From positions 1 through 37,913 of the forward strand of contig JANXTP010000394.1 of assembly GCA_025352345.1 (NCBI GenBank): a stretch of 37,913 nt of DNA, given 5' to 3'. Position numbers and translations under genes: made by a program. Positions 4,481 to 10,847 of this stretch are shown piece after piece (positions within the stretch are counted from its first letter, which is position 1; each line of letters starts with the position of its first letter). The DNA comes from Burkholderiales bacterium. GTDB taxonomy: Bacteria; Pseudomonadota; Gammaproteobacteria; Burkholderiales; Burkholderiaceae_C. Under the pieces are notes generated by a model, which saw nothing but the letters and a program-made list of their open reading frames with translations, had not been told where the DNA came from and did not search any database.

Positions 4481-4512
4481 AAAAAAAAGGCACGTCGAAC
4501 GATTGACGCGCC
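4481..4512 (-). terminator. Rho-independent terminator (minus strand)
   Basis: The minus strand reads GGCGCGTC-AATCGTTC-GACGTGCC followed by T8. This is an 8-bp GC-rich stem with one G.U pair, an 8-nt loop and a U8 tail. It lies 249 nt downstream of the degP/mucD stop and upstream of lepA. Confidence 0.7.
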
Positions 4513-4760
4513 TTCCAACAAAAATGTTTGGCAACTGCTTGTTGGGATTTCATTGTAGCCAAAAGCATGGCCGCAGAACCGCGCCAGTGCTTGTTTAGCG
4601 ATCGTTGCGCATCGCCAACAGAAAACTTATGCACATTTTATACACAGACCAGAGAAGCTATTTCCATGCCTTGGAGACTCTCTGGGACGGCTTTGCGTCC
4701 TGGGCTTGTGGAAGTGAGCAGATTCAAGAATGTAAGCGCTCGCAAACAAAAGACTTTGAA

Positions 4761-6263
4761 TCACCGAGCGGGGCGGATCACGATGTAGTTGACCCATTCG
4801 CCGCGCTTGACCAGCAGGGTCACCGATTTCGGCTTGTCCAGCTTGCCGATGGCCGCCTCGAACTGCTTGACACTGGTGATTTCGGTCTTGTCGAGCGACA
4901 GGATGATGTCGCCCTCGCGGATGCCCGCCTTGGCCGCCGCGCCTTCGATGGCTTCGACCCGAACGCCGTTCTTGACCTTGAGTTCGGTTTTCTGCGCGTC
5001 GCTCAGGTCGGACACCGCCAGCCCCAGCAAGCCGATCACCGCCGGAGGCTTGGGGGCGTTGCGCTCGACCGGGGCGCTGCGGGGTCGCTCGGCTTCGAGT
5101 TCGACGACGGTCACGCTCAACTCCTTGGCCGCGCCGCGGCGGAACACCTCGAGCGTCGCCTTGGTGCCCGGTTTGGCGCTGCCGACGATGCGCGGCAGGT
5201 CGCCCGCCTTGTCGATCGTGCGGCCGTCGAAACGGGTGATGATGTCGCCCGCTTCGACCCCGGCCTGGTCCGCAGGACCGCCGGCTTCGACGCTGCGCAC
5301 CATCGCACCACTGGGCTTGCCCAGGCCGATCGACTCCGCCACTTCCTTGGTCACCTGGTCGATCTGCACCCCGATGCGCCCGCGGATCACACGCCCGCTG
5401 CTGCGCAGCTGGTCGGCGACACGAATTGCTTCATCGATGGGAATGGCGAACGAGATGCCGATGAAGTTGCCAGAGCGGCTGTAGATCTGCGAATTGATGC
5501 CGACGACTTCACCGCGCATGTTGATCAGCGGGCCGCCGGAATTGCCCGGGTTGATGGCCACGTCGGTCTGGATGAACGGCAGGAAGTCGCCGGTGTCGCG
5601 CGCCTTGGCACTGACGATGCCGGCGGTGACGGTGTTGTCGAGCCCGAATGGTGAACCGATGGCGATGACCCACTCCCCGACCTTCAAGCGGCTGACGTCA
5701 CCGACACGCACCGCCTGCAAGCCGGTCGCCTCGATCTTCACCACCGCGACGTCGGTCCGCTTGTCGGCGCCGATCACGCGGGCCTTGAATTCGCGCTGGT
5801 CGGTCAGCGTGACGAACACTTCCTCGGCACCTTCGACCACGTGCGCATTGGTCATCACATAACCGTCGGCATTCAAGATGAAGCCGGAGCCCACGCCGCG
5901 CTGTTGCGGTTCGCTTTCCTGAGGGGAAGGCTGCTGGGGCGTGCGCTTCGGACTTTGCTGGCCAGGAATCGGCACACCGAACCGCTTGAAGAACTCAAGC
6001 ATGTCCTCGTCCATCTGCGGCGCGCCATTGCCGCGGGCCGCCCGATGCCGCTCGGTCGTGCGGATGTTGACGACCGATCCGCCCACGTTCTCGACCAGCA
6101 CGGTGAAGTCGGGCAGACTTTGCGCGTGCGCGACGGTGTGCAGGCCGCCGAGGGACAGCACCATCGATGCCGACAGACAGCCAACGGCACGACGCCACCC
6201 ATGCAGGGTTGGCGAAAGGACGAGATGAAAACCAGCGCGGGTCCAGCGGGATGACGTCTGCAT
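4761..6263 (-). CDS. degP: Periplasmic Do/DegP-family serine endoprotease (MucD-type), two PDZ domains
   Basis: Lies inside track ORF 4761..6368. The ATG at 6263 is downstream of the rseB stop and gives 500 aa. The signal-peptide-like N-terminus ends ...LGGLHTVAHAQ. It has the protease motifs TNAHVV and NPGNSGGPLIN, followed by two PDZ-like segments. Confidence 0.9.
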   Translation of the reverse strand: MQTSSRWTRAGFHLVLSPTLHGWRRAVGCLSASMVLSLGGLHTVAHAQSLPDFTVLVENVGGSVVNIRTTERHRAARGNGAPQMDEDMLEFFKRFGVPIPGQQSPKRTPQQPSPQESEPQQRGVGSGFILNADGYVMTNAHVVEGAEEVFVTLTDQREFKARVIGADKRTDVAVVKIEATGLQAVRVGDVSRLKVGEWVIAIGSPFGLDNTVTAGIVSAKARDTGDFLPFIQTDVAINPGNSGGPLINMRGEVVGINSQIYSRSGNFIGISFAIPIDEAIRVADQLRSSGRVIRGRIGVQIDQVTKEVAESIGLGKPSGAMVRSVEAGGPADQAGVEAGDIITRFDGRTIDKAGDLPRIVGSAKPGTKATLEVFRRGAAKELSVTVVELEAERPRSAPVERNAPKPPAVIGLLGLAVSDLSDAQKTELKVKNGVRVEAIEGAAAKAGIREGDIILSLDKTEITSVKQFEAAIGKLDKPKSVTLLVKRGEWVNYIVIRPAR

Positions 6264-6333: not shown

Positions 6334-7413
6334 TTACTTGTTCCGATCCACCGCCTCATAAAAGGCACGCAGCGTCACCCGCGGCACGTCGCCGACCACA
6401 GTGATCCAGAAATCGCCCTGGCGGCTCATCAGCGTCTGCGTGGCGCCGACGACGGTGATCCTCGGCCGCGGGTGCCGGTCTTCGTTGTACGGTTCGATGA
6501 ACAGCGACACATTGGTGATGCCATCGGAAAACACGGCCTGGATCAACTGATTGGCAGCCGATTTCCGATCAGCCGGAGCGAGCATGTCGAACGGCCTGCG
6601 GATGCAACTCAGCTGCCGAAAGCCTGCCACCGTCTTGCGCAGCTTCCAGCCTTCGGCTTCGAGCCGGGTCGGCGTTAACTGCGGTTTGACGACGCGGTAG
6701 CCAGCCAGCTTGCGCATCGGCAGCAAGACCATGTCGGGCTGCGAGCGCACGCCGATGTGCACGTCTGAAAACGCCGAGGTCTCCAGCGTTTCGCCCAGCG
6801 CGTTGAGGATTTCGGCGCGCAGCAGCAAGCCGCTTTGCTTGTCGGTCCACAGTCGATAGCCGTAGCGGAACTCGTCGCGCGGCTTGAGCATCAGCACATT
6901 GGCATCGTGCCCAGCGACGCGCTCGGCAGGCTGGAGGCTCACGTCGTAGAAATCGGCCACATGGTCGTCGGCGTCCTGCAGCAGGGACGGAAACGAATTG
7001 AGCACATCGCGCTGTTCGATCAGCGTGACCTTGTCGAAGGGCCACACGGTGTGCACCATACCGTTGTGGCGCAGCACTTGGCGGGCTTGCCCATCCAGCG
7101 GCTCGATGCGCTCGAACTGGTCGGTTCCATCGTAGAAATGCGAGATGCGCGCACTGGTCATCGCGCCCGACGAGCTGATGACGAAGGTGCCTTGAAAATT
7201 TCGCTGGTTCGCCGCGTTGTGGATGCGCGTCAACCACTCCCTGACTTCCTGCGGCTCGACCGCCACACCGGGGACAGCTACGGCCTGGCCCACGGCCATC
7301 AGCAGCATCAACAGCACGATCAGCCCCGAGCCTGCCGAAACCACCCGCGACCGGCGCCGATCCGCGGCGTGCGAGTTCAATGGATCACCGCTCAGGAATT
7401 TCGACAGCCGCAT
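6334..7413 (-). CDS. rseB: Sigma-E regulatory protein RseB/MucB
   Basis: Lies inside track ORF 6334..7458. The ATG at 7413 gives MRLSKFLSGDPLNSHAADRRRSRVVSAGSGLIVLLMLLMAVGQAVA (signal peptide), followed by EWLTRIHNAANQRNFQGTFV, which is typical of MucB/RseB. This start overlaps the rseA 3' end by 29 nt, so the exact start is uncertain. Confidence 0.8.
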   Translation of the reverse strand: MRLSKFLSGDPLNSHAADRRRSRVVSAGSGLIVLLMLLMAVGQAVAVPGVAVEPQEVREWLTRIHNAANQRNFQGTFVISSSGAMTSARISHFYDGTDQFERIEPLDGQARQVLRHNGMVHTVWPFDKVTLIEQRDVLNSFPSLLQDADDHVADFYDVSLQPAERVAGHDANVLMLKPRDEFRYGYRLWTDKQSGLLLRAEILNALGETLETSAFSDVHIGVRSQPDMVLLPMRKLAGYRVVKPQLTPTRLEAEGWKLRKTVAGFRQLSCIRRPFDMLAPADRKSAANQLIQAVFSDGITNVSLFIEPYNEDRHPRPRITVVGATQTLMSRQGDFWITVVGDVPRVTLRAFYEAVDRNK

Positions 7414-8077
7414 TGCGCAGCAGGCCCGAGGTCGGCCCGAGCACCGAGGTGCCGGCAAACTGCTTGTGGGCCGACAGGTACCGATCCAGCCGCGGATCGC
7501 GAATGACTTGGCCGTCGAAGACCAGTTCCATCCCTGCGGGGTACACCTCGGAAGGCGGTGCGACGTCTTCTGTTCTGCTGACCTTGATCAGCGAGTTCGA
7601 GGAACTGCCCGCCGGCGCCATCGCCACTTGCGGCACGGCAACCGGATTCACCGCAGGATGCTGGATCCCGACGACGGCACCGACCACCACCACGAACCCC
7701 GCCGCCAAGGCCATCGGAAGTGCCCAGGCACGCGCCGGCCGAACGACGGGCGGCGCCCCCCCCCCTTGACCCGCCGGCTCCGCAGCAGGATGCTGCACCG
7801 GCCGAGGCGCCAGGACGACCGGTTCGGCCGCCATGCGTTTGCGGAAGTCGCGCAGAAACTGCTCGTCACTGGCGCACGACTGCGCCAGGTCTTCGCAGCG
7901 CATGACGTCGCCGATCAGACTGTAGGCATGCCAGGTGTCACGGCTGCACACATCGGTGCGCCATTCCGAACAAATGCGCTCAACCGGGCCGCCCAGCAAC
8001 TCACCGTCGAGCAATGCCGACAGTTCCTCGCCTCGTGCGCGCCCCGGGTCGGATCCTGAACCCGAATGATCTGCCAT
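7385..8077 (-). CDS. rseA: Anti-sigma-E factor RseA/MucA
   Basis: Lies inside track ORF 7385..8107. The ATG at 8077 gives 230 aa. The N-terminal anti-sigma motif reads ELSALLDGEL...WHAYSLIGDVMR. There is a single central TM helix, WALPMALAAGFVVVVGAVVGI. It is located between rpoE and rseB. Confidence 0.82.
   Translation of the reverse strand: MADHSGSGSDPGRARGEELSALLDGELLGGPVERICSEWRTDVCSRDTWHAYSLIGDVMRCEDLAQSCASDEQFLRDFRKRMAAEPVVLAPRPVQHPAAEPAGQGGGAPPVVRPARAWALPMALAAGFVVVVGAVVGIQHPAVNPVAVPQVAMAPAGSSSNSLIKVSRTEDVAPPSEVYPAGMELVFDGQVIRDPRLDRYLSAHKQFAGTSVLGPTSGLLRNAAVEIPER
7756..7765 (-). repeat. Homopolymeric G10 tract (C10 on + strand) within rseA coding sequence
   Basis: Read directly. The + strand is ...ggcg cccccccccc ttgac.... 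The coding strand is CAA GGG GGG GGG GCG, encoding Q-G-G-G-A. It is the longest homopolymer I noticed in the window. Confidence 0.95.
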
Positions 8078-8145
8078 GACAATCTCCTGTCCCACCCCAA
8101 CACACATCGCCCGACGACCTGACTGCGGTCAGCGCCCATCCATGG

Positions 8146-8766
8146 TCACCACCGTTCGCCGACCCGAGTGTCCAATAAAGGTCGTAAACGCAGTGCAATA
8201 GCCTCCCGTGCGCGAAAAATCCGGGAGCGCACGGTGCCGATCGGGCAATTCATCAATTCTGCAATTTCTTCGTAGCTCAATCCCTCGATCTCGCGCAACG
8301 TGATCGCCTGCCGCAGATCTTCGGACAACGCGTCGATGGCGGCATTGACCGTCATCGCCACTTCCTTGCTCGCCAGCAGCGATTCCGGCGTTTCACCGTC
8401 GGTTAGTTCGTTCTCGGTGCGGGAAGTTTCATCGTCGTCGTCATGAGACACACGTGAAGACTCCGTCACCAGCAGGTCGCGTTTGAGTTCACCCAGCGCT
8501 TTCTTGGCGGTGTTGACCGCAATCCGGTACAGCCAGGTGTAGAACGCGCTTTCACCGCGGAACTGCGGAATGGCCCGGTAGGCGCGGATGAAGGTTTCCT
8601 GAGCGATGTCGGGCACCAGATCGACATCCCGGACCATGCGCCCGATCAGCCGTTCAATGCGGCGTTGGTACTTGACCACCAGCATTTCGAAGGCCTTGAC
8701 GTCACCCTGCTTGACCCGATCGATCAGCGGCGCGTCAGCGTCGGGGGCGTTGATGCGCTCAACCAA
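8146..8766 (-). CDS. rpoE: ECF RNA polymerase sigma factor sigma-E (RpoE/AlgU)
   Basis: The track ORF is 8146..8829 (GTG start). It shows region 2 (FYTWLYRIAVNTAK) and region 4 (LSYEEIAELMNCPIGTVRSRIFRAREAI). I prefer the TTG at 8766, which gives 206 aa. Its N-terminal length then matches E. coli RpoE, and it forms a TTGGTTGA junction with the upstream ORF stop. The GTG at 8829 and the ATG at 8820 remain possible starts. Confidence 0.88.
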   Translation of the reverse strand: MVERINAPDADAPLIDRVKQGDVKAFEMLVVKYQRRIERLIGRMVRDVDLVPDIAQETFIRAYRAIPQFRGESAFYTWLYRIAVNTAKKALGELKRDLLVTESSRVSHDDDDETSRTENELTDGETPESLLASKEVAMTVNAAIDALSEDLRQAITLREIEGLSYEEIAELMNCPIGTVRSRIFRAREAIALRLRPLLDTRVGERW

Positions 8767-9250
8767 GCTGGGCCTGCCGATCGGGTGTAGGCGGCCGAAC
8801 CGATGCGGCCGCGTGGGCATAGACCGCACAGCGCAAGGCGTGCCAGTGGGATTCGAGGCCCCGCCGCTGCACCGGAATCCAGCCGCGCCGCAGCGTGCGC
8901 CTCGGGGCGTCGCAGCGGAACTTCAGCAGCATCCAGCCACCGAGGTCCAGCACAACCCGCAACTCGCAGACGTCGATCGAGCCTGTCCCGAGACCAGGGT
9001 CGGTGACCTGCCAGCGCTGGGTATCCCAGAGCAACCTGATCGGCCAGCGCCGCAGCAAATCGACCGCACCAAGCACCCCGACCAGCACGGATGCCATCAG
9101 CAGCACGCCGCTCCAGCCAGGCAACTCGTCATGGCGCGTGACGAGCCAAGTCGCGACTGCCGACAGCGCAGTCGCACTGACCAGCCCGAGCGCCGTGTTC
9201 CAGACACCAAAGCGCTGGACTGTCACCTGCACCGCCGACGCCGCTTGCAT
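8759..9250 (-). CDS. Hypothetical inner-membrane protein (two TM helices; tentative YgfX/CptA-like shape)
   Basis: 163-aa ORF beginning 18 nt after the fabF stop. It has two hydrophobic helices (LGLVSATALSAVATWLV and GVLLMASVLVGVLGAV) followed by a Trp/Arg-rich soluble tail. Its frame is compatible with its neighbours. Function is unknown. Confidence 0.5.
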   Translation of the reverse strand: MQAASAVQVTVQRFGVWNTALGLVSATALSAVATWLVTRHDELPGWSGVLLMASVLVGVLGAVDLLRRWPIRLLWDTQRWQVTDPGLGTGSIDVCELRVVLDLGGWMLLKFRCDAPRRTLRRGWIPVQRRGLESHWHALRCAVYAHAAASVRPPTPDRQAQLG

Positions 9251-9268
9251 GACGCCGCCGCGGGGCCC

Positions 9269-10513
9269 TCAGACACGCTTGAAAACAAGCGTGCCGTTGG
9301 TTCCGCCAAACCCGAAGTTGTTTTTGACCGCCAGCTCGATCTTCATCTCGCGCGCCGTGTTGGCGCAGTAATCGAGGTCGCAGTCCGGGTCTTGGTTGAA
9401 GATATTGATGGTCGGTGGCGCCACCTGGTCACGCACCGCGAGCACGGTGAACAGCGACTCGATGCCACCCGCCCCGCCGAGCAGGTGCCCGGTCATCGAT
9501 TTGGTGGAACTGACCGCCAGCTTGTGCGCGTGATCGCCGAAGGCCAGCTTGATGGCATTGGTTTCATTCACATCGCCGAGCGGCGTGGAGGTGCCGTGGG
9601 CGTTCAGGTACTGGACCTGATCGGCCGACACGCCGGCGTTCCGCAAGGCCGCACGCATCGAGCGCTTCGGGCCATCGACGCTGGGCGCCGTCATGTGATG
9701 CGCGTCGGCGCCCATGCCGTAGCCGATCAACTCAGCATAGATCTTCGCGCCGCGCCGCTTCGCGTGCTCGTACTCTTCTAGCACCATGGCACCGGCGCCT
9801 TCGCCGAGCACGAAACCGTCCCGGTCCTTGTCCCAGGGGCGAGACGCGGTGGCGGGATCGTCGTTGCGGGTGGACAGCGCCCGCGCGGCCGCGAAGCCGC
9901 CGACACCCAACGGCAACACCGTCGCTTCGGCACCGCCTGCGACCATCACGTCGGCGTCGCCGTATTCGATCAGCCGGCCGGCCTCGCCGATGCAGTGCAA
10001 GCCAGTGGTACATGCGGTCACGATGGCCAGGTTGGGTCCCTGGAAGCCAAACTTGATCGACAGATGGCCGGAGATCATGTTGATGATCGAAGCCGGCACG
10101 AAGAACGGGGAGATGCGACGAGGACCGCGGGCCGACAGCTCCGCGTGGGTGTCCTCGATCAACGGCAAACCGCCGATGCCTGAGCCGACGATGCAACCGA
10201 TGCGCTCGGCCTGCTCTTCGGTCAACTCATCGTTGGTCTTCAGACCGGAGTCGCGCACCGCTTGGATGGATGCGGCCATGCCGAACTGCATGAAAACGTC
10301 CATGTGTCGAGCTTCCTTGGCAGGGAAGTAATCCTCGACATTGAAGTTCTTCACCTCGCCCGCGAAACGGCACGAGAAGCTGGACGCATCGAAGCGCGTG
10401 ATGTTGGCAATGCCAGAACGGCCCGCCAGGATGTTGGCCCAACCTTCCTTCACCGAATTGCCAACCGGACTGATCAGTCCGAGGCCGGTGACCACAACAC
10501 GACGCCGGCTCAT
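9269..10513 (-). CDS. fabF: 3-oxoacyl-ACP synthase II
   Basis: Lies inside track ORF 9269..10525. The ATG at 10513 gives [19 protein letters not shown]. It has the active-site Cys context [10 protein letters not shown], plus HGTSTPLGD and [11 protein letters not shown]. Confidence 0.96.
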
Positions 10514-10607
10514 TGGCGGCCCCAAAGTGGAACAAGCCCGCTGGTCGTCGAGCAGGCTGGATCAATCGAACATGGCGGGCGGAAATGCATGCAATGAAGG
10601 CTCGGAC

Positions 10608-10847
10608 TCAGGCCTTTTGGTGCTTCAACGCGTAATCGATCGCGAGTTGAACCGTGGTGATTTTTTCGGCTTCTTCATCGGGAATCTCGATACCGAACTC
10701 GTCTTCGAGGGCCATCACCAGCTCGACCGTATCGAGTGAATCAGCGCCCAGGTCGGCGACGAAGGCCTTCTCGTTGGAGACATCGGATTCGGGTACGCCC
10801 AGTTGTTCGGCGATGATTTTCTTGACACGGGATTCGATATCGCTCAT
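10608..10847 (-). CDS. acpP: Acyl carrier protein
   Basis: Lies inside track ORF 10608..10943. The ATG at 10847 is preceded by GGAGGA and gives 79 aa, [18 protein letters not shown]...[17 protein letters not shown]. The DSL phosphopantetheine attachment site is present. Confidence 0.97.

Follow-up and report, generated by a model that had tools for sequence, protein, structure and literature searches.

In a 37,913-base stretch of DNA from an uncultured Burkholderiales bacterium (hereafter, the window), the rseA/mucA-type anti–sigma-E gene carries an uninterrupted run of ten G residues shortly ahead of the codons for its transmembrane helix, and one assembly of the same near-clonal population carries eleven. 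We favor, at even chances, the explanation that this tract is a recent, lineage-specific, and incidental mutational hot spot that yields signal-blind rseA alleles, and is not a switch shaped by selection. Overall, the observation from which the analysis started is confirmed and its interpretation is partly supported, so that the tract stands as a credible but unproven mutational switch.

Results

The G10 tract is the longest homopolymer in the window

The tract is located at positions 7756 to 7765. It reads as C10 on the plus strand and as CAA GGG GGG GGG GCG on the minus (coding) strand, which encodes Gln104-Gly105-Gly106-Gly107-Ala108 of a 230–amino acid (aa) RseA/MucA-type protein; the ten bases thus comprise three Gly codons and the first base of the Ala108 codon. 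An earlier note, made from the sequence alone, had singled out this run as the longest in the window and the A8/T8 of a terminator as the next. Our count of homopolymers agrees: the runner-up is the A8 at 4481 to 4488, the U-tract of the terminator located 3′ of mucD. Besides the tract itself, the window contains no G/C runs of 7 to 9 nt and only six of 6 nt.

The number of G/C runs of at least 10 nt expected per window was ~0.005 both under an order-2 Markov model and when extrapolated from the 499 kb of related loci; an order-1 Markov model gave ~0.05. Scaled to a 4.5-Mb genome, chance runs of this length amount to roughly 0.5 to 0.7, i.e., about one. By this expectation, the tract is exceptional locally, yet about one such run per genome would arise by chance, and its position in rseA could be coincidental. 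Since GGG is a minority Gly codon in the window (~13.5% of Gly codons), three consecutive GGG codons are unusual in coding sequence. Contingency loci are typically recognized by a homopolymer of ~8 nt or more within a reading frame or promoter, and the G10 tract in rseA, which lies within the reading frame, is of this kind.

Two further features of the tract region were considered and set aside. The G run is a poor candidate for the ribosome-binding site of an internal start, the first in-frame ATG (Met122) lying ~47 nt downstream. Antisense open reading frames (ORFs) over the tract (7380 to 7769 and 7720 to 7905, both on the plus strand) were taken as the shadow frames that are usual in high-GC DNA.

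The tract lies in the linker of a divergent RseA/MucA-family protein

The gene containing the tract occupies positions 7385 to 8077 of the minus strand, with an ATG at 8077; an in-frame ATG upstream of this start, at 8107, would give a 240-aa product. Its identity as an anti–sigma-E gene, proposed in the earlier note, is borne out by a match to Pfam RseA_N (PF03872; E value of 1.4e-12, 48.5 bits versus a cut-off of 24), by matches of a clade profile to Protein Data Bank (PDB) structures of the N-domains of MucA (6IN7 and 8Z6G) and RseA (1OR7) at 2.5e-5 to 7e-5, and by the canonical operon in which it lies. The E. coli RseA equivalog model of NCBIfam (NF008116) scored 27.2 bits, below its threshold of 263. 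Judged by these profile scores, the protein belongs to the RseA/MucA family as a divergent betaproteobacterial member and not as an E. coli–type equivalog.

The sigma-E–binding N-terminal domain spans residues 17 to 100 (7778 to 8029, minus strand; Pfam residues 27 to 110 of the 240-aa ORF), and the PDB profile matches cover residues ~5 to 63. It is followed by a cytoplasmic juxtamembrane linker (residues 101 to 117; 7727 to 7777, minus strand) that holds the tract. In an alignment of 53 homologues, this hypervariable linker is the least conserved stretch of RseA. The tract is located 11 residues ahead of the transmembrane helix WALPMALAAGFVVVVGAVVGI (residues 118 to 138; 7664 to 7726, minus strand), which is the sole hydrophobic segment of the protein, with a 19-residue Kyte-Doolittle mean of 2.44. 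The helix is conserved throughout the alignment and includes the conserved Ala125-Ala126 pair: W118 and A126 do not vary, and conservation of A125 is at least 90%. A single central helix is a feature of the RseA/MucA family, for which it goes with a type II topology, here a prediction from the hydrophobic segment.

The remainder of the protein (residues 139 to 230; 7388 to 7663, minus strand), delimited by the alignment and by frame analysis, forms the predicted periplasmic domain. Pfam RseA_C gave no match to the window protein even at E values of up to 10, and the search of the PDB with the clade profile returned no structures of periplasmic domains. No part of RseA is more conserved in the clade than the C-terminal ~45 aa (residues ~185 to 230; 7388 to 7525, minus strand; ELVFDGQVIRDPRLDRYLxAHKQFAG...), which may constitute a clade-specific module for RseB binding or protease recognition.

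The operon has the canonical sigma-E gene order

Upstream of rseA lies rpoE, encoding an extracytoplasmic function (ECF) sigma-E of 206 aa with a TTG start (8146 to 8766, minus strand; Pfam Sigma70_r2 and r4_2). It scores 255 bits against the RpoE equivalog TIGR02939 (cut-off of 236) and is also called as a gene in two contigs of the same population described below, L002 and L003. Downstream, rseB/mucB (359 aa; 6334 to 7413, minus strand), identified by gene calls and by Pfam MucB_RseB (1.8e-53) and MucB_RseB_C (1.3e-20), starts with an ATG at 7413 that overlaps the final 29 nt of rseA. The last gene of the operon encodes a MucD/DegP-type periplasmic serine protease with Trypsin_2 and two PDZ domains (4761 to 6164, minus strand). 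The order rpoE-rseA-rseB followed by a mucD/degP-type protease gene is identical in L002, L003, L084, and L183.

Sequence inspection revealed an intrinsic terminator with a 12-bp stem and a T8 after mucD (4481 to 4516, minus strand), between this gene and lepA. In ~45 of 79 related Burkholderiales loci, a T8 is found at a matching relative distance 3′ of rseA; therefore, the terminator is conserved across the clade. At the other end of the operon, a 163-aa ORF (8759 to 9250, minus strand) is located between fabF and rpoE. It is separated from the fabF stop by only 18 nt and overlaps the rpoE TTG (8766) by 8 nt. A gene of 163 aa is called at the equivalent place in L003, L084, and L183. The ORF contains hydrophobic stretches and has no Pfam or NCBIfam matches; it looks like a conserved membrane protein that is apparently cotranslated with rpoE.

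A search of both strands of positions 7300 to 10700 for sigma-E promoters of the E. coli/Pseudomonas type (GAACTT-N15-18-TCNNA and looser forms) revealed nothing useful upstream of rpoE and rseA. The promoter of this operon may differ from the textbook motif on which the search was based.

Off-frame alleles are predicted to encode soluble sigma-binding proteins

Alleles of altered tract length were translated. Loss of one G (G9) yields a predicted product of 142 aa ending in ...GGGRRPSFGRRVPGHFRWPWRRGSWWWSVPSSGSSILR; the corresponding G12 product has 143 aa, and both end in ...SSILR. The stop codon used by both is located at 7648 to 7650 (minus strand), 235 nt upstream of the rseB start, and the G9 allele may thus possibly cause polarity or a loss of translational coupling. 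Gain of one G (G11) yields 228 aa with a Gly/Arg-rich tail (227 aa for G8), and translation terminates at 7392 to 7394 (minus strand), in a stop that still overlaps the rseB start. Tract lengths of G7 and G13 stay in frame.

As the earlier note had predicted for G9 and G11, translation of these frames shows that both products retain the N-domain and lose the transmembrane helix together with the periplasmic domain. The sigma-binding domain is kept whole, as it is in the predicted product of every tract-length variant; Ala125-Ala126 are lost along with the helix; and the sequence that follows the tract is replaced by a nonsense tail of 37 or 123 residues. Neither product contains a hydrophobic segment, the best 19-residue Kyte-Doolittle mean being 0.66 versus 2.44 for the wild-type helix.

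One of four assemblies of the population carries G11

A protein search returned P0001, which is identical to the window protein, and P0048, a 228-aa protein. The latter is 99% identical to window RseA over the aligned 45% and diverges afterward. It is encoded on a 1111-bp contig (L001) from the Logan assembly of SRR23617307, where the gene call at 178 to 864 follows the reading frame of the G11 allele. L001 carries G11, and its remaining 1110 of 1110 positions are identical to the window. G10 is present in three assemblies, one of them common to two samples: the window; L002, contig JAYUMW010000372.1 of the NCBI metagenome-assembled genome (MAG) GCA_043762345.1, which differs from the window by five single-nucleotide polymorphisms (SNPs), all at 444 to 501; and L003, from the Logan assembly of SRR23617210, which differs by one SNP and has an identical contig in a second sample. 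Within the 13.9 kb aligned from L001, L002, and L003, the tract is the sole indel.

The five SNPs between the window and L002 fall within 58 bases, with no differences in the remaining 9.1 kb, a pattern that suggests hypervariability or recombination confined to 444 to 501 in an otherwise clonal population.

The search for additional copies of the locus was negative. Neither a G9 allele nor the in-frame alleles G7 and G13 occurred in the protein collection that we searched. The tract with its flanks was also sought among metagenome contigs of the Joint Genome Institute (JGI): a first scan gave no matches, and a looser scan gave 97, none of which fitted the window, so that no copy was added. 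Look-ups of the exact proteins of the neighboring rpoE and rseB, which could reveal further contigs or contigs broken at the tract, again returned only L002 and L003.

Two other catalogue entries, P0045 and P0049, resembled recurrent inactivation of rseA and were rejected as errors of a 1x to 3x long-read assembly (ENA ERZ26165887). Their low-coverage contigs (L183, ctg134767_3x_l, and L184, ctg113722_1x_l) have fabF, rpoE, and mucB split as well. Contigs of this kind, on which many genes are split, are a source of false frameshift alleles in the protein catalogue.

Relatives lack the tract

The genome scan yielded 79 orthologous loci, mostly from MAGs, of Burkholderiales of the Rubrivivax/Rhizobacter/Piscinibacter/Methylibium group. 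The longest run per rseA orthologue is 3 to 7 nt. Homopolymers of 9 nt or more are absent from the 499 kb of related loci, where G/C runs reach 8 nt only twice. The closest relatives (87 to 88% identity) have no Gly run at the tract site and are two residues (6 nt) shorter there: L083 reads CAA AAG GTG CGG CCT, and the window counterpart is CAA GGG GGG GGG GCG CCG CCC.

In a contingency locus, an uninterrupted tract would be expected to be maintained in the lineage or to recur in orthologues; among the 79 orthologues it does neither. The earlier note had proposed a comparison of rseA orthologues for an uninterrupted tract, length variation, and frameshifted alleles. This check was positive in one respect: an assembly of the same strain with G11 exists. 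Orthologues have no comparable tract. The tract is thus recent and confined to one near-clonal population, and its absence from orthologues provides no sign of selection maintaining mutability. We infer that it has no adaptive value.

The longest runs of other rseA orthologues (C6 to C7; L026 at ~3280, L057 at ~3294, and L004 at ~3269) are located ~270 to 295 nt into the gene. From these sequences, the Pro/Ala/Gly-rich linker of rseA seems generally prone to short G/C runs.

Discussion

A predicted hypermutable tract ahead of the membrane anchor

By established knowledge, slipped-strand mispairing is expected to add or remove a base in a 10-nt G:C homopolymer at a rate that exceeds the rate in ordinary sequence by orders of magnitude. 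On this basis, we regard the hypermutability of the rseA tract as close to certain, irrespective of any benefit to the cell. According to the explanation that we favor, the tract would have arisen recently in an unconstrained linker that joins the sigma-binding domain to the membrane helix, and rseA would since then give rise to +1 and −1 alleles that are reversible and raised in frequency. The G11 seen in the assembly of SRR23617307 is probably such a slippage allele. The off-frame product would consist of an intact sigma-E–binding domain and a nonsense tail and would lack the helix, the DegS and RseP cleavage sites, the RseB-binding domain, and the Ala-Ala end.

In the canonical pathway, DegS cuts the periplasmic domain, RseP cuts in the helix, and ClpXP destroys the N-domain, whereby sigma-E is freed (PMC7593790). 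The off-frame product, with neither cleavage sites nor an anchor, could not enter this pathway, and control of sigma-E would be uncoupled from envelope signals. Two outcomes can be envisaged: the product could act as a signal-blind inhibitor, with sigma-E low and noninducible, or it could be unstable, with sigma-E on. We lean somewhat toward the inhibitor because a soluble MucA fragment of aa 1 to 75 binds AlgU strongly and suffices for viability (PMC10069406) and because stops that activate mucA in P. aeruginosa are seldom cytoplasmic (0 to 3%, versus 84 to 100% periplasmic; PMC2781719). Nonsense tails of 37 or 123 aa may destabilize the protein and thereby reverse the predicted direction, and the view expressed in the earlier note that the direction of the effect is unpredictable from sequence remains fair.

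Alternative explanations

The difference between L001 and the three G10 assemblies is a candidate for real heterogeneity, with a chance that we estimate as roughly even or a little better; a lone G11 contig would look the same if it stemmed from a slip during library preparation or sequencing. It is possible, though we find it less than likely, that G11 is an artefact of slippage in library PCR or of a low-coverage miscall, that mismatch repair keeps G10 stable in the cell, and that the tract is a chance run in a tolerant linker. Such a history would agree with the presence of G10 in three of four independent assemblies, one of them common to two samples, with the carriage of the tract by no relative, and with the ~0.5 to 0.7 such runs that chance would place in a genome. 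Homopolymers this long do slip in library PCR and in sequencing; L001 is short, and therefore its coverage is probably low; and P0045 and P0049 show that artefactual frameshifts occur in the database. However, L001 matches the window at all of its other 1110 bases, which indicates that the data set is not generally error-prone. Provided that the Logan graph admits only k-mers that occur at least twice, G11 was carried by two or more reads and was the path retained in SRR23617307. A 10-nt G run is, moreover, known to be unstable in vivo even with mismatch repair, which argues against a tract that stays at G10. Should the length variation prove not to be biological, it would serve as a caution: homopolymer frameshift alleles from metagenome protein catalogues need read support.

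A contingency locus shaped by selection appears unlikely. Such a locus would provide a heritable and reversible switch through which a biofilm-dwelling subpopulation shifts its sigma-E regulon independently of envelope signals, as a form of bet-hedging that would resemble the phase-variable regulators of pathogens; we are similarly doubtful that a free-living uncultured Burkholderiales bacterium uses G10 to toggle RseA, heritably and reversibly, from a sensor bound to the membrane to a soluble form blind to signals and back. The tract length falls within the classical range of phase variation, in the gene of a master regulator, and three successive GGG codons contrast with a GGG usage of ~13.5%. 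Of the five data sets sampled from this otherwise near-clonal population, one has G11 as its consensus, and the overlap of the G11 stop with the rseB start means that downstream translation would be preserved. Against this, the tract is conserved in none of the 79 species and in none of the ~45 closer homologues, the window contains only one such tract, contingency loci are not known from environmental Burkholderiales, and reversibility, phenotype, and fitness benefit would all have to be assumed. The habitat of the host is probably a stream or glacier-fed biofilm, as judged only by the names and accession series of neighboring MAGs.

We consider it very improbable that slippage by RNA polymerase or frameshifting by the ribosome at G10 gives every cell a minority of soluble anti-sigma factor that buffers sigma-E with the DNA unchanged: the length of the tract and the alternative frames, open for 37 and 123 codons, are all that speaks for it, and transcriptional slippage is indeed established for long homopolymers, but for A/T runs, being less efficient on G/C runs; alternative frames are, in addition, commonly open in a window of 65% G+C, and no conserved mechanism can depend on a tract that is absent from all relatives.

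Comparison with known systems

The closest parallel to an incidental mutational hot spot in rseA is the P. aeruginosa mucA gene, where the G5-SSR426 repeat biases mutation to mucA and a 1-bp slip gives mucA22 (PMC2781719). The earlier note had invoked this allele and quoted it correctly: loss of one G from a G5 run truncates MucA and releases AlgU (PMC2781719). The analogy holds for the gene family and the principle, since in both cases a G run is located in an anti–sigma-E/AlgU gene of orthologous type, within an algU-mucA-mucB-mucD–type operon, and a slip of 1 bp yields a truncated anti-sigma factor, so that the sigma factor is no longer coupled to envelope sensing (here, by prediction). In other respects it is loose. 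A run of ten, compared to five, should be far more mutable and readily reversible. The tract described here precedes the helix, whereas the mucA22 product (aa 1 to 143) retains the helix and ends within the periplasmic part; with activating mucA stops located in the periplasmic part and so rarely in the cytoplasmic one, the outcome here may be the opposite, i.e., sigma-E held off. Furthermore, G5-SSR426 is conserved across P. aeruginosa strains, whereas the window tract is found in one near-clonal population only.

With respect to their predicted structure, the G9 and G11 products resemble soluble N-fragments of RseA and MucA, such as the E. coli RseA cytoplasmic domain and MucA aa 1 to 75, in having no anchor and an intact sigma-binding domain. 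The natural product of RseP ends in a C-terminal Ala-Ala, which directs the fragment to ClpXP. In contrast, the frameshift products would have no Ala125-Ala126 and would end in nonsense tails of 37 or 123 residues.

Homopolymers are also known to switch regulators in other bacteria: the C-run of bvgS in Bordetella pertussis, itself a member of the Burkholderiales, and the tracts of flgS and flgR in Campylobacter jejuni turn regulons on or off heritably. As in these cases, the tract studied here is a homopolymer inside a regulatory gene that controls a whole regulon. Those switches have been shown experimentally and recur among isolates, whereas here a single variant contig is available; the host here is free-living and uncultured, and the gene encodes an anti-sigma factor and not a two-component system. 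A search of the literature revealed no phase-variable rseA and no homopolymer-bearing anti-sigma factor apart from mucA.

If the tract did act as a true switch, the population would at all times include cells whose envelope-stress or biofilm program is fixed, and this would be a phase-variable ECF sigma regulon outside the host-pathogen setting. If the variation is biological, it would represent a natural case of the main envelope-stress regulator being switched by a repeat ahead of its membrane anchor, in an environmental bacterium and not a pathogen. It would extend the principle of mucA22 to a more mutable tract and would provide a natural test of whether an untethered anti-sigma domain locks sigma-E off or frees it.
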